DNA of 64,000 nucleotides, taken from Bacteroidales bacterium. Its GTDB lineage: Bacteria; Bacteroidota; Bacteroidia; Bacteroidales; VadinHA17. The translations under genes and the position numbers were made by a program. The DNA is taken from positions 66,750 to 130,749 of the forward strand of contig JALONT010000007.1 in the NCBI GenBank assembly GCA_025454795.1, in the 5' to 3' direction. Within the stretch, counting starts at the first letter, position 1. Each line of letters opens with the position of its first letter. A model generated the notes under the pieces. The model was given only the letters and a program-made list of their open reading frames with translations. It was not told the origin of the DNA and ran no database searches. Of the stretch, positions 53,529 to 64,000 are shown piece after piece.

Positions 53529-53707
53529 GTTATTTATATCAGAAAACAGGCAACAAATGTACAGAAAACCGGATAAAAAAAGATCCGCATTCGTCTCTTA
53601 TTAATAAAGTGAGAATCGGAATTAATACCTCCGGAGGAATGCGGGCAATTCGCAGAAAAAACATTGAGCTTGCCTGATTATATAATTCGGAATTGGACTT
53701 TAGAGTA

Positions 53708-56662
53708 CTATTTCTGTTTATAAGTCTCAGTAAATATCGTATCTGCCAGCCACTTCCTGAAGCTCTGATTATCCATGAACTGTTTGAAGAGTTCTGTATG
53801 GTCGGTCAGCATCTCAACGATGACCTTCTCTAATGCCTTATCATGCTCAATACGGGCGTTCTGAGGATCTTTCTGCTTCATGGCATTCTGGTACGCCTTA
53901 TCCGATGAAACTTTAACAGGAAGGTCCACAGTGATGATATTTTGAATCTTATCAACATCATTCCAGGCTATATTACCGAACTGATCGTTAAATGATCTGA
54001 TAATGTTGCTTAGCCGGTCAAGTTCCGGTTCAGCCACAAGCCCTCCACCTGAGACCAGAATCGGATCAATCTCAGCATCTTCATCAGCAAGCCTTATCTT
54101 CTCCGTTTCCTGGACCTGTGCACGATAACTCTCCATATCTATTGACTCAAGAATGCCTTTAGCCAGATCTTCTTCTATCGGCGCCGGAAGCTTGGGTATA
54201 AGGAAATTCAGGAATATGGATAGTTTCTCCCACTGCGGGTTTGAGTATGTTAATATGGATGCCAGAAAATTATATGTCCTTTCAAATGCCTTAGCCTTCC
54301 CCTTGAAATCAACCTGACCATTTTCATCAAGTTCGCTTTTATATACAGCCACACATGAGTCAAGAATCGGATCAAGGTTTTCCCTGCTGACACCTGTCAG
54401 AAACAACCTTACAATCTCATCTTTCTGACTTTGATTATATACCTGGTACTTGTCCAGTGTCGCTTTCAGATCATGAAGTTTGTTATGATCTGTTTCATTG
54501 CTCAGGATAGTTGTCCGGTAATAGTCGCTAAAAGCAAACTGAATCACATCCACATCATTCATGAAATCGAGCACAAATGTATCGGTCTTCAGAGGGTGTG
54601 CCCTGTTTAGCCTGGAAAGGGTCTGAACTGCCTTAATCCCTGATAGTTGCTTGTCAACATACATTGTATGCAATAGTGGTTCGTCATACCCTGTCTGAAA
54701 TTTATCAGCTACTATCAGATATCGGTAGGGATCACTAATAAACTTATCAGGGATACTTGAACCCGGGAATCCATTAATCTTTGCCTCAGTTACATTCTTC
54801 CCATTATAATTATGGTCCCCTGAAAATGCGACTATTGATTTGTATGGGCTTTTAATTTCAGTCAGGTAAGCACTCACGGCCTGATAATATTGAATAGCTA
54901 TTTCTATTCCGCTGCAGACTATCATACATCTTGCCATTCCTCCTATCTTATGACGTCCGATCACCTGGTCAGTAAAATGATCGACCATTATCTCAGCTTT
55001 CTGCCTGATTGCATAATTGTGTGATTCCACATACCTGCGAAGCTTCTTCTTTGCCTTCCTGATATCAAATTCCGGGTCGTTTTCTATTGCCTTAATCAAC
55101 TTATAATAACTATAAACTGGCGTGTAGTTCTGCAGAACATCAAGAATAAATCCTTCCTGTATTGCCTGCTTCATGGTATATGAGTGAAAAGGACGATGTT
55201 TAATTACTTCTCCCTCTTTGTAAGGGACTCCGAAGATCTCAAGGGTTTTATTCTTTGGAGTTGCTGTAAATGCAAAGTAGCTGGCATTTGACAGCATCCT
55301 GCGGGATGTAATTATCTGGTTTATAGCATCTTCAATATCTTCAGGGGACTCAAATGATCCATATTCAGCTGATGGTTCCGATAATACCATATTCATTTTG
55401 GAAGCCGTCCTTCCTCCCTGGCTGGAATGGGCTTCATCAATAATGATTGCAAATTTCCTGTCGCGATGGCTGTCTCCTATCTCATCAAGAACGAAGGGGA
55501 ATTTCTGGACTGTGGTTATAATGATCTTCTTACCCTGTTGAATAAACGTACGCAGTTGTGCAGACCCTTCAGTTACAGCACCTACAACCGATGAAACCTG
55601 GGCAAACCTTTTTATATTATCTCTCAGCTGTTTATCGAGAACGCGACGGTCTGTTACCACAACTACTGTATCAAACAATGATGATCCCGCCTTTTCTAGA
55701 CCGACTAACTGATGCACCAGCCAGCTTATAGAATTGCTTTTCCCGGAACCTGCAGAATGCTGTATAAGATACCGTTTACCAACACCATCATTTGGCGCGG
55801 CGGCAAGTAACTTCCTGACAACATCAAGCTGATGATAACGAGGGAAAACCTGCTCTTTCTTCACCCTGCCAGTCTTATCATCCTTTCTCTCAGTAATCTG
55901 GGCATAGTTTTCAAGAATGTTGGCAAGACTCTCTTTCCGGAGAACCTCTTTCCACAGGTAATCAGTAGCCAGTCCGAAAGCATTGGGAGGATTGCCTGCT
56001 CCATCATTAAAACCTTTGTTGAATGGCAGAAACCATGATTGCTTGTCTTTAAGGTGAGTACACATTTTTACCTGGTGGTCGTCCACAGCAAAGTGAACCA
56101 TGCACCTGCCAAACTGAAAGAGAAGTTCGCGGGAATCCCGATCGCGCTTGAATTGATGAACGGCATCCTCAACTGTCTGTTTAGTAAGTTTGTTTTTCAG
56201 CTCGAATGTAATTAAAGGCAATCCGTTGATGAAGATTGCCATATCAAGTGCCAACCGGGTATTATCATTGCTGTATTGTAACTGGCGTGTAACGCTGAAG
56301 ATGTTCTTTTTGAATAGATCAAGTGCTTTTGGATTCTGTTCAGAAGGAGTTCCGTAGAAAAGTTGAAGGTTAATAGCCCCATCCTGTATTCCTGTGCGAA
56401 GGACATCAATAATCCCGCGTTTTACAATCTCTCCCTGGAGACGATGGAGAAACTTTGTACGTCGGGGGTTGTCGGTCTCAAACGATTGAGATTCAAATGC
56501 CTTTGGCTGGGTTTCTTTTATGAATGCAGTGAGTTTTACTATGTCAATGGCATGGTCACGATCATAATCAGTGCTGATGCCCTGAAGATAACCAGCCTCG
56601 GAAATAAGAGAGTTTACAATTATTGATTCAAGTCCTTTTTCAGATGTGTCGGTTGGTGACAT
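53708..56662 (-). CDS. hsdR: Type I restriction endonuclease subunit R
   Basis: D..IFINGLP..FELK nuclease motif, QHSAGSGKS, DEAH, FTATP, KFQTGYDEP, QTLSRLNR. Confidence 0.93.
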   Translation of the reverse strand: MSPTDTSEKGLESIIVNSLISEAGYLQGISTDYDRDHAIDIVKLTAFIKETQPKAFESQSFETDNPRRTKFLHRLQGEIVKRGIIDVLRTGIQDGAINLQLFYGTPSEQNPKALDLFKKNIFSVTRQLQYSNDNTRLALDMAIFINGLPLITFELKNKLTKQTVEDAVHQFKRDRDSRELLFQFGRCMVHFAVDDHQVKMCTHLKDKQSWFLPFNKGFNDGAGNPPNAFGLATDYLWKEVLRKESLANILENYAQITERKDDKTGRVKKEQVFPRYHQLDVVRKLLAAAPNDGVGKRYLIQHSAGSGKSNSISWLVHQLVGLEKAGSSLFDTVVVVTDRRVLDKQLRDNIKRFAQVSSVVGAVTEGSAQLRTFIQQGKKIIITTVQKFPFVLDEIGDSHRDRKFAIIIDEAHSSQGGRTASKMNMVLSEPSAEYGSFESPEDIEDAINQIITSRRMLSNASYFAFTATPKNKTLEIFGVPYKEGEVIKHRPFHSYTMKQAIQEGFILDVLQNYTPVYSYYKLIKAIENDPEFDIRKAKKKLRRYVESHNYAIRQKAEIMVDHFTDQVIGRHKIGGMARCMIVCSGIEIAIQYYQAVSAYLTEIKSPYKSIVAFSGDHNYNGKNVTEAKINGFPGSSIPDKFISDPYRYLIVADKFQTGYDEPLLHTMYVDKQLSGIKAVQTLSRLNRAHPLKTDTFVLDFMNDVDVIQFAFSDYYRTTILSNETDHNKLHDLKATLDKYQVYNQSQKDEIVRLFLTGVSRENLDPILDSCVAVYKSELDENGQVDFKGKAKAFERTYNFLASILTYSNPQWEKLSIFLNFLIPKLPAPIEEDLAKGILESIDMESYRAQVQETEKIRLADEDAEIDPILVSGGGLVAEPELDRLSNIIRSFNDQFGNIAWNDVDKIQNIITVDLPVKVSSDKAYQNAMKQKDPQNARIEHDKALEKVIVEMLTDHTELFKQFMDNQSFRKWLADTIFTETYKQK

Positions 56663-56702: not shown

Positions 56703-58139
56703 TTACAAATCATTATCCACAGTTGATTCATCAAGAACATCTTCAACATCAGTTATTTCTTCCAAATCTGTAAGAGCTTCCTCCTCTTCAAATTCAGGTA
56801 TCTTAATGTCTCTTACATCAATTTTACCAGTGACTACATCAGCTACAATACGTGTACGATACTCTTTGAACAGGTCTACCTCAAATTCAATTTGTTTTAT
56901 TGTTATATCCAAAGCAGAAGTGACGTTCTTAAGATACTTAACCAATTCTTCTTGTTCATTTAATGACGGAAGAGGTAGGGAAATGCCATTCATCCCACCA
57001 AGACTTAAAGCTGGTTGTGCTGTTTCTCCTACTATAGATTTGAATGCATCTTTGTTTTTGGCAACCAATAAAGCAAAATGAATGAAATTATTATCACAAA
57101 TCTTCCTATTCACAGTTAGTTTTAAAGAGTTTCCAGAAACAACAGATTTCTTTTCAAGTTTAGGTAGTATTCCAGACATACCATAGTAAGCACCAATTTT
57201 TGCAATTATAATATCATCTTCTTGACATTCACTTCTTTTGATTGTCTCAAAGTGTTCTCTCGTTATAGTTTTGAATTCCTTAATCTTAAAATAACCTTTA
57301 GTAATAAACCCAGATTCAATCACATAAACATCTCCGTTTAAGACATAATGGACACTTTTAAGGCTGGACCCAAATGGTCCATCAACAAATGAATTATGTG
57401 AACTGGCTTTTAAATACTTGATCTTTCTAACTTCCCAACCATCAGGTACTCTACTGAGCCATCCCACCCCAGAGTCTTTGTATTTTGGATAAGGATTTCC
57501 CGTACGAATATCAATATTACCTGTAACTGCATCATTAATAATTACCTGCTTCTGCTCTTTCAGAAGCTCAATCAAACGTCTCTTTGCTTTTATGAACTTA
57601 GCAATCTGTGTGGTCTTCCAGTCGAGGTAACGGGCAATATGCTTTTGGTCTAATAATGAAGGTACAGGAAGCTTAGTTCTTCTTAGTATTTCATAGTCAA
57701 TGTTTTGACCTTCTCTAATGCCGGTAACACAGGTCGTCAATAATTTTATAAAAGGTTTTGATTTAGCAAGATGTTTAAAATACCCTCCATCTATTTTATT
57801 GGATGGTATCAGTATAGTATATGCCGGACTAATGATGCCTCTGTAATAAGCTTTTTCAATTCCCCCCTGAAATGATCTAAGGCTTATAACAAAATCCCCT
57901 GGTTCAACAAGTTTGAGTAAGTGTAGGTCTTTTTGTGCTATAACTGTTCTGGTCCCATATAAAGTCTTTGGCACGACTCCCAGGGTTTGAGTAGCAGCAA
58001 GCAACGGTTCATCTTGGTAACCTTTTTCCACTCGTTCTTTAAAAAGGTATTTGGTCTTTAACATTTCCCAATCAGAAGGGTAATTGCTGATCCAAGGTGT
58101 TCCAGATTCAAAATATTTTGGATATGGTTTAAGATTCAT
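56703..58139 (-). CDS. hsdS: Type I RM specificity subunit S
   Basis: Two TRDs with repeated YPKY.(E/D)SG..W...P..WE and P.PSL..Q..I..YL conserved regions; DAVTG/DVVTGKID. Start at ATG 58139. Confidence 0.92.
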   Translation of the reverse strand: MNLKPYPKYFESGTPWISNYPSDWEMLKTKYLFKERVEKGYQDEPLLAATQTLGVVPKTLYGTRTVIAQKDLHLLKLVEPGDFVISLRSFQGGIEKAYYRGIISPAYTILIPSNKIDGGYFKHLAKSKPFIKLLTTCVTGIREGQNIDYEILRRTKLPVPSLLDQKHIARYLDWKTTQIAKFIKAKRRLIELLKEQKQVIINDAVTGNIDIRTGNPYPKYKDSGVGWLSRVPDGWEVRKIKYLKASSHNSFVDGPFGSSLKSVHYVLNGDVYVIESGFITKGYFKIKEFKTITREHFETIKRSECQEDDIIIAKIGAYYGMSGILPKLEKKSVVSGNSLKLTVNRKICDNNFIHFALLVAKNKDAFKSIVGETAQPALSLGGMNGISLPLPSLNEQEELVKYLKNVTSALDITIKQIEFEVDLFKEYRTRIVADVVTGKIDVRDIKIPEFEEEEALTDLEEITDVEDVLDESTVDNDL

Positions 58140-58140
58140 T

Positions 58141-59937
58141 TTATAACAGATCAAAATATTCCTTAATCCTGGCTGCCATCAGGGACCTTCGCTGAGTCAG
58201 AAAATCATCAAAATCAGGGATCTTGTTGTCAATCATGGTTTCAGGGATTGCATTTCGCCGCAGATTTTCTCTTAACTGGGCATGCTGTGTAATTCCTCCA
58301 TATTTAACTTCCCCACCATTACATTGTCCTCCTAATTCATTAAAGTATATTTCAGGAGATTTGTCTCCGATAGCAATATTTATCTCACTCTGAGTAAGCA
58401 CAAAATTTGCTATTTGGTTATATTTACCCCTGTGAAGTCCTTTCTTCTTAAGATAATTCTTTGGAAAGATATGATGCACATCCAGCCTGTTCAGTACAAG
58501 ATCGCGTACAGTAATATCTCTCGAAAGGAAACCCTTATCATCAAGTTTCACCTGTGCTGCCTTATAGGTTAAAAAGTACGGACTTATTGCAGAGGATGTC
58601 TCCATCTGTTGCGGGAGAAGAGTTGTCCAGAATCCCTCAGATAGTTGTGCTCCAATAACAGCATTAATATAGTTTTCAAGTCCCTGTGCATCAATCTGCC
58701 GGATATCCAGGTCAAATGCAGTCTCTGGATTACCAGAGTATCTGCCAGTGATCATGCTCATAACATACCACCTTCGAACCAGCCGCTCTATTTTATCAGG
58801 ATGGAGGCTTTCATTTCTTCCCATTAAATAAAGAATGTAAGCAAAGTTTACTGCATTCTGACCACCAATAAGATCACTGGTAATAAAACCGGCTGATCTC
58901 AATATCATTACAAACCTTTCAAAATGAGTCTGATTCATAAACTGCAGTATCCCCGTCTTAAGCTTTGAAAAGGATTCCCTGGCTATTTCGTCCTCGTACT
59001 GTTTAGTCTCAAAGTTCCTCCCTGAGAGCAGTGCAACCAGATCCTGCAGTTTACCACGTCTGAATTCCGAGGTAAAAGCCACCCTTAACATATCGGTGTA
59101 GGATGGATCATAGATGTCATCATTTACATCTTTTACCCAGGACATTTTAGCAAAGAAATCAGATTGGGCAAATTGTTTATCTCCCTCCTTTATTTTTAAG
59201 TAAAACTCAGGGGCAACAGCTAAGTGGCAAAAATAGTCAATAGCCTTTCTAAGCATATTTCCACCATAGGTCTCATTAGCTGCAATCTTTGACATCGCAA
59301 AGTCAGCCTGAGAGAGTTCAGCTCCTGCGGAATTAACCCTTATAAATATCTCGGTTACTGTTTCTATGTCAAGATCTTCGGCAAGATCAATTATTCCAAC
59401 ATGATTATTGACAATTTTCCGGAGGTTTTCCAGCACTTTTGAAACAGGTCTTATGTCAATATCCGGATTCCTTTTCGCATAATCATCTGTAAGATCTATA
59501 ATGCTTGATTCAGGTGAAAAAACTTCGGCAATATCATATATCCAGATACTGTTTTTCTGGATAGCCGGGTTTGCAACCTCAAATTTTTCTTCGAGTGGAT
59601 TGAAAGCAATTCTTATCCGGACTGTTTCATAGTCTTTTGTAAGTACCTGACGACCCAGCAAAGATGCCATCAGAGCTGTTACTCTTTGCTGACCATCGAT
59701 CAATATCTTTTTCCCGGCTGACAGGGACCCATCTTTAAGCTTAACAGTAGGATTTCTCCAAACAATAAGGTAACCTATAGGATAACCCTGATATAATGAG
59801 TCAAGTAGGTTTCTCACCTTCGTCGCATCCCAAACGAATGGTCTTTGAATTTCAGGAATTGCTATTTCACCCGATTTAACCCAGGTAAGGAGTGTTTCAA
59901 TAGGGTGAGGTGTCACAGAATATCTCTGGGTACTCAT
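58141..59937 (-). CDS. DUF262 (ParB/Srx-like) plus C-terminal HNH-like nuclease, GmrSD family
   Basis: [34 protein letters not shown]-terminal [13 protein letters not shown]. Confidence 0.85.
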
Positions 59938-59940
59938 GTT

Positions 59941-61902
59941 TTAATCCTTTATTATTTCTTTTAGAAGACCGTCTGTTTCAGCTTCGATCTTTTTGATGTC
60001 AGCTACAATCTCTTCAAGTGTTCTCATCTGAACCGGCTTATAGAAGTATTTTGTAAAGGACACTTCGTAACCGGTCTGTGTTTTGGAGTCATCTATCCAT
60101 GCTCCGGGAGCATACGGAAGCACTTCGCGCACAAAGAAAGCTTCAATACCACCATCTTCAAGAAGGGGTATTTGTTCCGTATCGCGCAGGCTGGTATCGG
60201 GTTCATATTCAACCAATACCTTTTTACCGGCAATGATCCTCTCAAAGAGACCGTGTAAAGGATCAGGAGTCCCCTGCTTGTGGATTTTCTTAATAACCGG
60301 TATCCCGTTTTCATCGATTTTCCCGGCAGCGATCATCTCTTTAATTTCTTTGCTGGAATATGCCTTTTCAGGGTCAATATCTTTCAGTTTAAGGGGTCTT
60401 TCAGCGATTACTTTGGAATAGCCAAATGCCTCATTCGGGAATATTTTTGATTCCTCAGTCTCAGCCGGATTGATAATAAGTTCAGTGATTTTATTAATCT
60501 GTTCCTCAGAGAATTCGCAATTCTTCTTCCCAAGGTTCTTCCGGAGAGGAACATACATTTTACTGGCATCAACAAGCTGCACTTTCCTTTTCCTCTCAGG
60601 AGACTTTCGGTTTGATAGCAACCAGATGTAAGTGGAAATCCCTGTATTGTAGAACATGTTTTCCGGCAATGCTACTATTGCTTCAAGCCAGTCATTCTCA
60701 ATGATCCATCTGCGGATGTTTGATTCCCCCTGTCCGGCATCGCCTGTAAATAAGGAAGAACCATTGTGAACTTCAGCGATACGGCTTCCGAGAGCTGTAC
60801 TGTTCTTCATCTTGGCAAGCTTGTTCACAAGGAAGAGCATTTGCCCATCACTGGACCGGGTAATCATTTTATATTCAGGATTCCCGGCATATTGAATTAC
60901 AAAGCGGGGATCTGATATCTCTCCCTTGCCCCCCATACGATCCTGGTCTGTCTTCCAGCTTTTACCGTATGGTGGATTAGATAGCATAAAGTCGAATTCC
61001 TTCGATGGGAAAAAGTCAGATGAAAGTGTCGAGCCGAATTTCATATTCTCTGCCTCAGATCCTTCACCCTTTAACAACAGGTCGGCTTTAGTGATTGCAA
61101 ATGTTTCAGGATTGATCTCCTGACCATAGAGATGTATCGCAACCTCCTTATTCTGAGCCTTTGCCAGTTCCATGAGGGTTTGTTCAGCTACAGTAAGCAT
61201 ACCGCCTGTCCCACAAGCGCCATCGTACAATAAGTATGTTCCGGATTCAATTTTTTCTGCAACAGGAATAAAGACCATTTTAGCCATCAGCTTGATGACA
61301 TCACGTGGAGTGAAGTGTTCTCCAGCCTCCTCATTGTTCTCTTCGTTAAAGCGTCTTATCAGCTCCTCAAAGATCAGCCCCATTGAATGGTTATCGAGTG
61401 CCGGCATTCTGATATTGCCCTGAGTGTCATAAATAGGATTAGGGCTCAGGTTAATATCCGGATTAGCAAACTTTTCAATTACTGAGCCGAGAATGTCAGC
61501 CTCAGACATTTTGGGGATCTGATTACGGAACTGGAATTTCTCAAGGATCTCCTGAACATTCGGTGAGAATCCATCGAGATAGGACTCAAAATCTACCTTG
61601 AGCTTCTGTTGGGTGGTTCTGGACTTCAGGTCTCTCAATAAGAATGGGCTGGTATTGTAGAAAGCCTGTCCGGCTGTTTGGCAGAGTGCTGGGTTCATAT
61701 TGACAACCTTCTTTTTGTCGAGTTGATCCTTGAGTTTTAATACAGCAGCTTTTGTGGGTTCAAGGAGAGCGTCTATGCGCCTGATAACAATCATCGGTAG
61801 TATTACATCGCGGTATTTACCACGAACATATACATCACGAAGGCAATCGTCGGCTATACTCCAGATGAAGTTAACGATCATATTGTGTTGAGAAAGATCC
61901 AT
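59941..61902 (-). CDS. hsdM: Type I RM N6-adenine methyltransferase subunit M
   Basis: FIWSIAD..LR, EEAGEHFTPRDV, YDGACGTGGML, GQE, SNPPYG, MFYNTGI. Confidence 0.94.
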   Translation of the reverse strand: MDLSQHNMIVNFIWSIADDCLRDVYVRGKYRDVILPMIVIRRIDALLEPTKAAVLKLKDQLDKKKVVNMNPALCQTAGQAFYNTSPFLLRDLKSRTTQQKLKVDFESYLDGFSPNVQEILEKFQFRNQIPKMSEADILGSVIEKFANPDINLSPNPIYDTQGNIRMPALDNHSMGLIFEELIRRFNEENNEEAGEHFTPRDVIKLMAKMVFIPVAEKIESGTYLLYDGACGTGGMLTVAEQTLMELAKAQNKEVAIHLYGQEINPETFAITKADLLLKGEGSEAENMKFGSTLSSDFFPSKEFDFMLSNPPYGKSWKTDQDRMGGKGEISDPRFVIQYAGNPEYKMITRSSDGQMLFLVNKLAKMKNSTALGSRIAEVHNGSSLFTGDAGQGESNIRRWIIENDWLEAIVALPENMFYNTGISTYIWLLSNRKSPERKRKVQLVDASKMYVPLRKNLGKKNCEFSEEQINKITELIINPAETEESKIFPNEAFGYSKVIAERPLKLKDIDPEKAYSSKEIKEMIAAGKIDENGIPVIKKIHKQGTPDPLHGLFERIIAGKKVLVEYEPDTSLRDTEQIPLLEDGGIEAFFVREVLPYAPGAWIDDSKTQTGYEVSFTKYFYKPVQMRTLEEIVADIKKIEAETDGLLKEIIKD

Positions 61903-61929
61903 AAGAATGAAATTGAGGAGGGGGAGGAA

Positions 61930-62403
61930 TTATTTTACTTCTTCTTTATTTTCAAGAGACTTCAACATAGTTTTGAATTCCTGAATATTGACGAGAGGTA
62001 GATAGATATTTTGATAGTCAGTACCACCTGTAAGGGCAGCTAAAATACCTCTTGCAGATGAAAAACTGACGCTCATAAGAGTAATCATGAGATCATCTGG
62101 AATATCTACCTTGTGATCTTGCGACTCTTTAATTATTTCCTCATAATCTTTGAACAGGAAGTCACATTGAATTGTTGCACCGAAAAGTTTTATAGGTTCA
62201 TCTGTTTCAGCCCGACATAGGAAATCTGTTAGAACCCTGACAGTAAAGACTCCTTTAGCTGGATCAAATCCAAACTGAAATCCTTTGCGAACTCCGATTC
62301 GTTCTTTCTCAAGGTTTTTTACTGGCATACTATCAAGGGAGTTCAGATATGAAGTTAATTTCTTAATGCCCTGAAGGCTGTATTGCAATTGTTTTGTACT
62401 CAT
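61930..62403 (-). CDS. SecB-like chaperone (TAC chaperone)
   Basis: 157 aa with four predicted beta strands, then a helix with SFSSARGIL and LPLVN as in SecB-fold proteins; third gene of a TA operon. Confidence 0.7.
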   Translation of the reverse strand: MSTKQLQYSLQGIKKLTSYLNSLDSMPVKNLEKERIGVRKGFQFGFDPAKGVFTVRVLTDFLCRAETDEPIKLFGATIQCDFLFKDYEEIIKESQDHKVDIPDDLMITLMSVSFSSARGILAALTGGTDYQNIYLPLVNIQEFKTMLKSLENKEEVK

Positions 62404-62404
62404 T

Positions 62405-62866
62405 TCATGCTGCTTTTGATCCTGGGATTATTGTCTCTGTTATAGAGTAGCTTTCACCAATAGTTACAAAAGAATTCAGATCAATGTTATAATTGTTTGT
62501 TTTTACACCTGGCTTATAGCCAAGCATTTCATCCAACCTTTTGTGGGAAGTATCTGTTTGATTAAAGATGAGTGATACTGTGTTTAAACTGTCCTTAGAA
62601 ATAAACTCATTAACATCAACCAAATGGAAATCAGGGATTTTGTCAATGGCAAGGCAAAGTTTTACAAGAGTATCTATCCTGAAATTAAGATTAGCTCCGT
62701 TCAATATCTGTGAAACTCTTCCCTTTGATATACCAAGATTTTCAACGAAATGTTTGTTAGGAATATCATTGTTCTGAATATAATCAGCAAGGTCATTGTA
62801 AATCTTATTCTGAATTATTTCTGTCCAGTATTCACTGCTTTTTAAAAGGGCTTCCCTAGTTATCAT
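62405..62866 (-). CDS. HigA-like XRE HTH antitoxin with a C-terminal extension (putative ChAD) ending in -AA
   Basis: LGISKGRVSQILNG..NFRIDTLVKL HTH, followed by a low-structure tail of about 65 aa. Confidence 0.75.
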   Translation of the reverse strand: MITREALLKSSEYWTEIIQNKIYNDLADYIQNNDIPNKHFVENLGISKGRVSQILNGANLNFRIDTLVKLCLAIDKIPDFHLVDVNEFISKDSLNTVSLIFNQTDTSHKRLDEMLGYKPGVKTNNYNIDLNSFVTIGESYSITETIIPGSKAA

Positions 62867-62868
62867 TT

Positions 62869-63255
62869 CTAATTGTTTTTAATATATTCTACTTTTAATC
62901 TCCTGAGTCTGGCAATATCTTCCTTTTGATTGTTCTTGGATCCACCGAAAACTACAATATATCCTTTATCGTCTTTAAAGAGATAAATTCTTATAGCGTC
63001 TTTCTTAATTTCATAATCTTTTACCTTATCGGATGTTCTTCGTCCTTTTAGTTCTCTGAATTTCGTTCTTGGTAGAAATTTAAGGTTCGCAACAGAATCC
63101 ATAGTTGCATAAATTGTGTTTAGTGCCTTTTTTTCATCAGCATTCTCAAGAGCTTCACAGAATTCATTAAATTCGCATTTACCATCTATTTCCAGTTTAT
63201 AGAAATTGATTTTACCTTTTACTTGTTCTATCCTTATTAACGCAAATGTATGCAT
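62869..63255 (-). CDS. RelE/HigB-like toxin
   Basis: 128 aa, basic; KFRELKG...YEIK...IRIYLF...IVVFGG.K..QK.DI pattern; first gene of the operon, upstream of the HTH gene. Confidence 0.7.
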   Translation of the reverse strand: MHTFALIRIEQVKGKINFYKLEIDGKCEFNEFCEALENADEKKALNTIYATMDSVANLKFLPRTKFRELKGRRTSDKVKDYEIKKDAIRIYLFKDDKGYIVVFGGSKNNQKEDIARLRRLKVEYIKNN

Positions 63256-63258
63256 AAT

Positions 63259-63278
63259 AGTTTAGTTATAACTAAACT
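63259..63278. promoter_or_regulatory. Perfect 20-bp palindrome, putative antitoxin operator
   Basis: AGTTTAGTTATAACTAAACT, 3 bp upstream of the toxin ATG. Confidence 0.75.
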
Positions 63279-63580
63279 TTTGTTAAAATATTTTCAATCT
63301 TCTCTGATTAAACAGGGTAAGATAATTCCAATTCCCAAATTACACAGATGAAGATTGAAGCTAACTTTAATTGGGAATGTGATCTCATTGCAACCCTTTT
63401 ATCAAAATAATACCAAATATAAGTATAGTATTTTTATAAAGAATTCAATTATAAGATTATTCCAGCCTGTCGACAATCTCCTTTGGCTCTCTCAGCACAT
63501 ACTCCACTGGCTATGCAAATGTGGTGCAAATGGGTCAAGAAAAAAGGAGTTAAATTTCTCTAACCCCTTGACTTTCAGTG

Positions 63581-63653
63581 AGCGGGAAACGAGACTCGAA
63601 CTCGCGACTCTCAGCTTGGGAAGCTGATGCTCTACCAACTGAGCTATTCCCGC
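63581..63653 (-). tRNA. tRNA-Gly(CCC)
   Basis: GCGGGAA/TTCCCGC acceptor, anticodon loop TTCCCAA, GTTCGAG. Confidence 0.95.
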
Positions 63654-63661
63654 ATTTAAAA

Positions 63662-63715
63662 GACCCTCAGCCTGGGATCCGCCGGCTGGCGGACTACCAA
63701 CTGAGCTATTCCCGC
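63662..63715 (-). pseudogene. Truncated tRNA-Gly duplicate interrupted by a 16-nt palindrome
   Basis: 63694-63718 is identical to 63632-63656; 63662-63677 matches 63606-63621 at 14/16; TCCGCCGGCTGGCGGA lies between them. There is no T-arm. Confidence 0.8.
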
Positions 63716-63721
63716 ATTAAA

Positions 63722-63794: not shown

Positions 63795-63812
63795 ACCTTC
63801 TGCAATCCCTCG

Positions 63813-63885
63813 AGCCTCCAATGGGACTCGAACCCACGACCTGCTCATTACGAATGAGCTGCTCTACCAGCTGAGCTAAGGAGGC
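63813..63885 (-). tRNA. tRNA-Thr(CGT)
   Basis: GCCTCCT/TGGAGGC acceptor, anticodon loop TTCGTAA, GTTCGAG; TATATTTG promoter at 63904-63897. Confidence 0.95.
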
Positions 63886-64000
63886 GTAAATCGCCGCAAA
63901 TATAAATAATTTCATTCCAATTTCCCCAGCCTCTGAAGCAAAGGCGGGTGCGAATAATGAAAAAATACGTATGCCGGATGGGGCATCAGGTTTGAAAGAT

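Follow-up and report, generated by a model that had tools for sequence, protein, structure and literature searches.

What do three small genes encode that stand directly in front of a type I restriction-modification (RM) cluster in an uncultured member of the Bacteroidota, and do they form one unit with the restriction genes? They lie in a 64,000-nt stretch (the window) of contig JALONT010000007.1, positions 66,750 to 130,749 of the forward strand, from a Bacteroidales bacterium of VadinHA17 (assembly GCA_025454795.1); coordinates are given within the window. The original prediction took the trio for a toxin-antitoxin-chaperone (TAC) module apparently co-transcribed with the RM operon. We conclude, with a probability of about 65%, that it is a HigBA-type TAC of divergent protein families, heading a type I RM cluster that is likely read from the toxin-antitoxin (TA) promoter, and acting by a mechanism that we infer.

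The elements of the cassette are as follows.

63259-63278, no strand assigned: 20-bp palindrome, putative antitoxin operator or RNA hairpin
62869-63255, minus strand: toxin, 128 amino acids, predicted HigB/RelE (BECR) fold
62405-62866, minus strand: antitoxin, 153 amino acids, XRE-type helix-turn-helix (HTH) plus tail, C-terminus PGSKAA
62567-62866, minus strand: antitoxin residues 1-100, conserved XRE-type HTH domain
62405-62566, minus strand: antitoxin residues 101-153 and stop codon, variable tail resembling a chaperone-addiction (ChAD) element
61930-62403, minus strand: chaperone-like protein, 157 amino acids, predicted SecB fold
61903-61929, minus strand: pyrimidine-rich 27-bp spacer between the chaperone gene and hsdM

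Every gene of the cassette and the RM cluster is carried on the minus strand. The first three are co-oriented and tightly spaced in the order toxin, antitoxin, chaperone, with gaps of 2 bp (62867-62868) and 1 bp (62404), and hsdM follows after 27 bp. Re-measurement of the gaps, the palindrome and the KAA end of the antitoxin showed each to be as first described. The trio has the anatomy proposed for it, with a toxin of predicted HigB/RelE fold, an antitoxin in which an HTH domain is followed by a variable tail with Ala-Ala at its end, and a third protein of predicted SecB fold.

The toxin

A model of the toxin was predicted with AlphaFold2 (AF2) from an alignment of 38 sequences (predicted local distance difference test, pLDDT, 89), and compared by VIA-align with 48,161 representatives of the PDB. 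The best structural match is S. pneumoniae HigB (6af3_A, Z 12.1, 2.4 Å, 105 residues), followed by ribosome-bound HigB1, which serves as toxin in the classic TAC of M. tuberculosis (7nbu_Y, Z 11.2, 2.5 Å, 103 residues). Seven representatives match at Z≥8, and all belong to the RelE/ParE superfamily (HigB, HigB1, RelE, YafQ, PrpT and an H. pylori homologue); RelE, YafQ, YoeB and ParE match the model at Z 7-9. Foldseek also puts S. pneumoniae HigB at the top, weakly, with E 0.24. At the level of sequence there is no Pfam match, with no RelE-type Pfam family at E≤1, and no PADLOC model at E≤0.1. The match to TIGR02683 lies below threshold (9.4e-4; 19.5 bits against a cut-off of 62.85), and that to phrog_3445 'toxin' is weak (6.3e-4). 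Fifteen columns are invariant among the 38 sequences of the family, including K79, E82, K84, Y91, K107, Q110, D113, R118 and K121. Thus by predicted fold only, the 128-aa protein belongs to the type II TA toxin superfamily with the HigB/RelE (BECR) fold. This is the RelE fold that had been anticipated.

The antitoxin and its tail

The N-terminal part of the antitoxin gives a set of concordant HTH matches over residues 20-76, as expected for the XRE-type protein originally proposed. These include phrog_2339 'HTH DNA binding protein' (1.3e-6), the AimR N-terminal HTH of NCBIfam (5.3e-5) and Pfam HTH_37 (1.4e-3), with every Pfam match below its gathering score. The match to TIGR02607 HigA is at 0.021, and in PADLOC the protein matches PDC-M69A (2.7e-4) and another model labelled PDC-M64C (0.031).

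The two parts of the antitoxin differ in conservation in an alignment of 15 sequences from related loci. Across 14 relatives, residues 1-100 share 60-74% identity with the window, against 15-58% with a median of 19% for the 53 residues of the tail (101-153). Conservation within the tail is limited to F101 and Y117, both invariant, and the final two residues. The C-terminal dipeptide is Ala-Ala in 14 of the 15 antitoxins and Ile-Ala in the other, so that the long tail with its terminal KAA noted at the outset recurs in its last two residues. A ClpX gene is present in the genome (561 bits, above cut-off). In the parts of 10.1101/2024.02.24.581848 seen here, CmdA has an Ala-Ala terminus and loses stability through ClpXP, HigA1 of M. 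tuberculosis terminates in Val-Ala, and ChAD is anchored in the chaperone through aromatic residues. By analogy, the features of the tail match those of a chaperone-addiction element carrying a ClpX degron. A complex predicted from the chaperone (alignment A1) and antitoxin residues 96-153 (alignment A4) scored 0.24 against a mark of 0.32, which speaks neither for nor against binding.

The chaperone-like protein

The AF2 model of the 157-aa protein, from an alignment of 26 sequences, comprises four antiparallel strands (7-20, 36-47, 52-63 and 71-85), a long helix (103-125) and a C-terminal helix (140-151). Among the Foldseek matches listed at E≤1e-3, 13 of 13 are SecB chains. The top match by VIA-align is Rv1957, chaperone of the M. 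tuberculosis TAC, bound to its ChAD peptide (5mtw_C, Z 8.8, 3.2 Å, 120 residues), with E. coli SecB second (5jtl, Z 7.9) and unrelated folds from Z 5.6 down. The family has two invariant residues, R118 and P136, that align with the invariant R and P of a set of five PF02556-positive Bacteroidota proteins, with a spacing of 18 residues in both. The hhalign match between that set and a profile of 115 relatives (E 4.3e-4) covers this R...P helix motif only. In PADLOC the protein matches PDC-M64C (PDLC04763; 1.2e-11) along almost the whole of its length, and weakly PD-T4-9_C (0.025); the latter is CmdC, the chaperone of CmdTAC, as given in part of PMC9519451. In the ESM Atlas 9 of the 30 nearest clusters fall in a set with 23% PF02556 members, which we treat as a lead only. 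No relative was found in the viral contig collection that was scanned. On the strength of the model, the 157-aa protein is SecB-like by fold only and lies outside PF02556. The original prediction had expected a SecB protein of PF02556; the fold was borne out by two aligners, and the family membership was not.

Around this protein there is a wider family that has no Pfam entry, with 1,158 cluster representatives at E≤1e-3 to its profile. Eight distant relatives were found in 400 other genomes sampled from the phylum (E 1e-11 to 1e-16). In seven of the eight the chaperone gene is third, behind a small open reading frame (ORF) and an HTH_3 gene of 129-173 aa. One of the small first ORFs matches Pfam HigB_toxin (1.9e-19) and two resemble the window toxin by eye. 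Pfam SecB itself was found in 5 of 201 genomes of the phylum, and the five PF02556-positive genes (L069-L073) also stand behind one or two small ORFs. The first ORF of L071 appears by eye to be of the same family as the toxins that accompany window-type chaperones in L024-L026 and L028, and that of L070 has 171 aa. We conclude from this gene order that the 157-aa family is in general one of TA-associated SecB-fold chaperones. The sections consulted of Sala et al. (PMC3581621) report TAC and antitoxin-chaperone systems from seven phyla and use PF02556 to define solitary SecB; the main text of that paper does not contain the word 'Bacteroid'.

A conserved palindrome at the toxin start codon

Immediately upstream of the toxin gene there is a perfect palindrome of 20 bp (AGTTTAGTTA and TAACTAAACT on either side of its centre); its half-sites, AGTTTAG and CTAAACT, flank 6 bp at the centre, and 3 nt separate it from the ATG. 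No other perfect 20-bp palindrome exists in the 64-kb window. At least one was present in 17 of 200 first-order Markov-simulated windows, and the palindrome alone is therefore mildly unusual only; its significance comes from conservation in related loci. Twelve loci have a readable region upstream of the toxin, leaving out L017; the contig of L011 starts within the toxin gene.

Window, L003, L012, L013 and L014 (5 of 12 loci): perfect 20-bp palindrome
L002, L004, L006, L007 and L015 (5 of 12 loci): outer 7+7 arms kept, centre altered
L016 and L019 (2 of 12 loci): palindrome degenerate

The palindrome that the original prediction placed before the toxin is thus kept in 10 of 12 loci though the flanks otherwise differ, always 2-3 nt from the ATG, and it is the sole block conserved throughout 11 aligned upstream regions. 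The invariant arms, variable centre and co-conserved HTH domain favour a putative dimeric repressor site. It occurs as a single copy in the 3.29-Mb genome at up to one mismatch. A second operator near hsdM was not found, the window giving 3-mismatch matches at chance level only and the genome none at up to one mismatch. Since the operator is unique in the genome, control of the hsd genes by the antitoxin would be possible through one polycistronic transcript only.

Linkage to the type I RM genes

The genes downstream of the cassette provide a complete type I RM set (hsdM, hsdS and hsdR by Pfam and PADLOC) within the window.

59941-61902, minus strand: hsdM, type I methyltransferase, 653 amino acids (Pfam N6_Mtase 1.8e-52, HsdM_N 9.8e-23)
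58141-59937, minus strand: GmrSD-like DUF262 protein, between hsdM and hsdS (Pfam GmrSD_N 7.3e-30)
56703-58154, minus strand: hsdS, specificity subunit (Pfam Methylase_S 6.1e-16; PADLOC Specificity_I 3.5e-85)
53708-56662, minus strand: hsdR, restriction subunit, final gene of the island (Pfam HSDR_N, SWI2_SNF2, ResIII, T1R_D3-like)

The GmrSD-like protein matches GmrSD_C at 0.01, below the cut-off, and PADLOC HEC-05 at 2.4e-34; its gene overlaps hsdS by 14 bp.

Eighteen related loci were usable, 3 from genomes and 15 from metagenomes; L020 was left out as too weak (37% identity over 55 residues). In each of the 18 the chaperone gene adjoins that of the antitoxin, although L005 keeps no more than the final 32 codons of the latter. 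A toxin gene is present in 16, the others being L005, where it is absent, and L010, where the contig starts within the antitoxin gene. Together with the window these loci make 14 non-redundant lineages, of which 12 extend past the chaperone stop codon.

Window, L006, L011/L012 and L014 (4 lineages): same-strand hsdM start (MDLSQHNMIVNFIWSIAD...) 21-29 bp after the chaperone stop
L002 (1 lineage): hsdM truncated after 18 codons
L007-9 (1 lineage): spacer and the first 8 nt of hsdM, nothing more
L015 and L016 (2 lineages): convergent type I cluster of another family, with a YgjP-like gene and a 1,075-aa hsdR (L016 also GmrSD_C)
L003/L013, L004, L005 and L010 (4 lineages): no RM in view past the chaperone

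Spacer equivalents of 21-29 bp are found in L002, L006, L011/L012 and L014. That of the window is markedly rich in C and T on the coding strand (TTCCTCCCCCTCCTC), and its counterpart in L002 is alike. L012 has the complete order T-A-C-hsdM-hsdS-hsdR seen in the window. Between these two loci hsdM is 84% identical, hsdR 78% (first 207 residues) and hsdS 35%; the toxin is 75% identical, and the antitoxin and chaperone 54-59% only.

A tree of antitoxin plus chaperone has two clades, each with support of 100/99, and the same-strand hsdM cases, remnants included, all fall within one of them. For this reason we consider that the TAC-hsdM fusion arose once and was kept through deep divergence. Judged by gene order, the arrangement is kept in one clade of related wetland and sediment Bacteroidota. 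The recurrence of TAC-hsd adjacency looked for in the original prediction is therefore seen as four lineages with same-strand spacing of 21-29 bp, plus the remnants, inherited through the whole clade; neither a different fold for the 157-aa protein nor a failure of the adjacency to recur, the outcomes open to computation that would have spoken against it, was encountered. Since two lineages kept the TAC after loss of hsdM, the TAC is independent of the RM system. Orthologues of hsdM (E≤1e-150) occur in 22 other genomes of the 400 sampled, with identity of 67-69% at best.

The cargo of the type I operon varies by lineage. The window carries GmrSD_N/DUF262 between hsdM and hsdS, L012 carries PDDEXK_3 between hsdS and hsdR (L012:8934-9314), and the GmrSD_C gene of L016 adjoins its hsdR. 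A decayed cassette is found at L005:2842-3412, where the antitoxin remnant and an intact chaperone (76% identical) are followed by a UvrD-type helicase gene. At L012:1695-2944, about 1.2 kb upstream of the TAC and on the opposite strand, a HipA-type kinase toxin is split into HipA_N and HipA_C ORFs, and its proximity to the TAC marks the L012 locus as a TA/defence cluster.

Transcription of the cassette and the RM genes

A scan for the Bacteroidota -7 consensus TAnnTTTG gave the following candidate in front of the cassette.

63414-63421, minus strand: candidate -7 box TATATTTG, roughly 160 nt before the toxin start codon

Clade I loci have TAAATTTGATA in common at the equivalent place. The same consensus is matched just before tRNA-Thr (63897-63904) and before cinA (53554-53561). 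These boxes are consensus matches only, and their total of 58 in the window is not above chance (62 expected). There is none on the coding strand from the first codons of the toxin to hsdM. A perfect match, TACATTTG, lies at 63243-63250 (minus strand) within toxin codons 2-5, just past the palindrome; other loci have a different sequence at these codons. A scan for the sigma-70 consensus, which is ill-suited to Bacteroidota, was not above shuffles (32 against 30.1 expected). We also considered a leaderless sigma-70-like promoter (TTAACA-N16-TAAACT) lying over the palindrome, and dropped it because other loci do not share its -35-like part.

On the minus strand, terminator-like hairpins were found at 63569-63544 (after tRNA-Gly and before the cassette), 56240-56217 (inside hsdR) and 53587-53570 (after hsdR), so bracketing the seven-gene cluster. 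About 290 nt of intergenic sequence follow the first of these. No terminator-like hairpin was detected between the chaperone gene and hsdM. Contigs of a wetland metatranscriptome are identical to the window in the chaperone gene (62181-62365) and in hsdM (61335-61573), although carry-over of DNA is a possible source. The simplest reading of the layout is that the TAC and hsd genes are likely co-transcribed. Of the co-transcription originally suggested, the parts that stand are the spacers of 21-29 bp, the absence of a detected terminator-like hairpin, and the absence of a canonical -7 box from the toxin to hsdM.

Proposed mechanism and alternative explanations

From its fold and by analogy with the M. 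tuberculosis TAC and with HigBAC and CmdTAC of E. coli, the toxin would most likely be a ribosome-dependent mRNA endonuclease. The HTH domain of the antitoxin would neutralise it, bind the 7-6-7 palindrome at the start codon and repress the operon. By analogy with HigA1 and CmdA, the tail would act as a chaperone-addiction element, exposed to ClpXP unless covered by the 157-aa protein. If the chaperone were lost, or titrated by a competing client such as a phage protein, the toxin would be freed and translation would stop. In one clade the cassette forms the fixed 5' module of the RM cluster, T-A-C-hsdM-(cargo)-hsdS-(cargo)-hsdR, and because of this position the RM genes are most likely transcribed from the TA-autoregulated promoter. 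We infer that the antitoxin may control the hsd genes. A guard or abortive-infection role of the TAC for the RM system is speculative and drawn from analogy.

A number of observations weigh against reading the trio as a TAC that is fused to the RM operon. The three proteins belong to no curated family at the level of sequence (the antitoxin having sub-threshold HTH matches only), and neither their family profiles nor the single proteins have a significant sequence match in the PDB. For the chaperone the pLDDT of 71 is middling, and Z 8.8 is near the level that the tool calls common. Pfam SecB has no match to it at E≤1 and matches none of 115 relatives (E≤0.01) and nothing in the 99%-complete genome, and the hhalign match to the SecB set has a probability of 34% only. 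With the sole candidate -7 boxes 100-160 nt upstream of it, the palindrome would be unusually placed for a repressor site. No contig of the RNA library, from one wetland metatranscriptome, spans the chaperone/hsdM junction. Lastly, the same-strand linkage has a single origin, so that the linked loci share descent and do not count as independent cases; the TAC remains where hsdM has been deleted (L002 and L007-9); and no same-strand hsdM occurs in the sister clade or in any of the 8 distant relatives. These last three findings would also be expected of an autonomous selfish or defence cassette, inserted once before hsdM with a promoter of its own that we do not recognise, and uncoupled from the RM genes as in the ordinary clustering of defence islands. 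It would fit, too, that three other genomes have the hsdM orthologues (67-69% identity) without a TAC, that none of the 400 sampled genomes of the phylum contains a close TAC relative, and that type I loci with neighbouring TA modules have been described before (E. coli brnAT, symE and rpn, in the part of PMC12707154 available to us). Such a cassette does not readily explain why a hairpin-free spacing of 21-29 bp was kept while the antitoxin and chaperone fell to 54-59% identity, why two loci of the sister clade independently adjoin type I RM, or why there is no canonical -7 box before hsdM within the cassette. We regard uncoupled insertion as somewhat unlikely, and as an explanation to be kept in mind.

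The position of the palindrome bears also on whether it acts as DNA at all. With the candidate -7 boxes 100-160 nt upstream, it would fall in the 5' untranslated region, 3 nt from the ATG, and as RNA it folds into an 8-bp hairpin inside a structure of -10.9 kcal/mol, which could limit translation of the toxin or serve as a processing site. Yet the fold has a modest z-score of -2.3, the arms are invariant in sequence without compensatory changes while the centre varies, which is the pattern of two protein half-sites, and the co-conserved HTH domain is an obvious DNA-binding partner; we think an RNA function in place of an operator unlikely. If the palindrome is an operator, its place at the head of a seven-gene cluster would suit a trio that mainly regulates the RM operon, like a controller protein or TvrAT, with the HTH protein setting hsd expression while the system becomes established in a new host and a 'toxin' of little or no toxicity. 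There is precedent in the pneumococcal tvr Phd-Doc homologues, which are described as regulators with no addiction phenotype in the portion seen of PMC6265443. A pure regulator would have no obvious use for a chaperone and a degron-like tail, however; the 15 invariant columns show the toxin family to be well conserved, and the three-gene architecture exists also without RM, in the sister clade and the distant relatives. A purely regulatory trio is consequently very unlikely in our view. A further proposal retains the toxic function and makes the TAC both sentinel and controller of the RM system. With the three cassette genes and all hsd genes under one TA-repressed promoter, removal of the antitoxin by ClpXP would free the toxin and at the same time derepress restriction, coupling abortive infection and restriction through one operator. 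The trigger would be a phage or anti-restriction protein that titrates the SecB-fold chaperone, or a shift in the capacity of ClpXP, which also acts on HsdR in restriction alleviation in E. coli. We hold this stronger form of coupling to be doubtful. The reading that we prefer remains a HigBA-type TAC heading the RM cluster.

The accessory island and its border

The following features lie upstream of the cassette.

63812-63885, minus strand: tRNA-Thr(CGT), upstream of tRNA-Gly
63580-63653, minus strand: tRNA-Gly(CCC), upstream border of the island

Beyond the hsdR end of the island are the housekeeping genes cinA and then ftsY. In two genomes of the same genus, cinA and the genes past tRNA-Thr are syntenic with the window. 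Between cinA and tRNA-Thr these genomes have different ORFs, and their tRNA-Gly segment has the opposite orientation to that of the window. By dc-megablast, their syntenic stretches of 12 kb have no similarity to 53.7-63.3 kb of the window. As no similarity to it was found there, the 9.6-kb TAC-RM block is taken as an accessory island in a variable region beside tRNA genes.

Between the two tRNA genes, at 63696-63717 (minus strand), 22 nt repeat the 5' end of tRNA-Gly (gcgggaatagctcagttggtag), and DNA contigs of the likely source sample have alternative joints there (63698 to 63663). This copy may be a scar left by rearrangement, or may reflect a collapse of the assembly, at the border of the island.

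Comparison with known systems

The known TACs come from Actinobacteria and Proteobacteria, are stand-alone or prophage-borne, and have recognisable SecB homologues. All three proteins of the window elude curated sequence models and are recognisable by predicted fold and gene order only, and this suggests that TACs are probably under-counted in Bacteroidota and in environmental genomes. The order T-A-C-hsdM-hsdS-hsdR sets DNA restriction behind a TA promoter and operator, an arrangement that points to joint expression of a suicide module with a defence that cuts DNA. Should the two be functionally coupled, they would provide a testable model linking restriction to an abortive fallback, and with an exact 20-bp operator and a few small proteins the system should be easy to reconstitute. 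In the titles and abstracts of the papers searched we found no description of a TAC that heads an hsd operon.

Closest in design is the M. tuberculosis HigB1-HigA1-Rv1957 system (Rv1955-1957). The gene order is the same, its toxin (Z 11.2) and chaperone (Z 8.8) are among the best structural matches, and its antitoxin likewise joins an HTH domain to a C-terminal extension whose last two residues are small and aliphatic. The window trio differs in lacking detectable sequence similarity to it, in a chaperone outside PF02556 and in its uncultured Bacteroidota host; moreover its cassette heads a type I RM operon, with an operator immediately next to the start codon. E. coli HigBAC and CmdTAC (PD-T4-9) share the three-gene logic, and CmdTAC in addition the Ala-Ala end of CmdA with its dependence on ClpXP and a weak match to PD-T4-9_C. 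Those systems are prophage-borne and stand-alone with recognisable SecB homologues, whereas the TAC of the window is within an RM operon. The PADLOC system PDC-M64, for which no paper was found in the literature, has a component C model matched by the window chaperone, while the toxin matches no PADLOC model.

Among RM-associated modules, PrrC of the EcoprrI type Ic locus and PARIS are likewise RNA-targeting suicide modules built into a type I RM cluster (according to the part seen of PMC12707154). PrrC is a single protein kept latent by the RM complex, whereas the window has a self-contained TA placed before hsdM, with its own chaperone and operator; of the guard logic of PrrC and PARIS it shares the physical linkage to the RM cluster only. 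The pneumococcal tvrAT pair of Phd-Doc homologues at the SpnIV locus is a TA-like pair inside a type I RM system, with regulation proposed to occur through a palindromic site (in the section of PMC6265443 consulted). It differs in belonging to another TA family, in having no chaperone, in lying between hsdM and hsdR and in being coupled to a recombinase. Our verdict from these comparisons is that the window holds a real TAC of divergent families, and that its fusion to a type I RM system at the level of the operon is a new variant.

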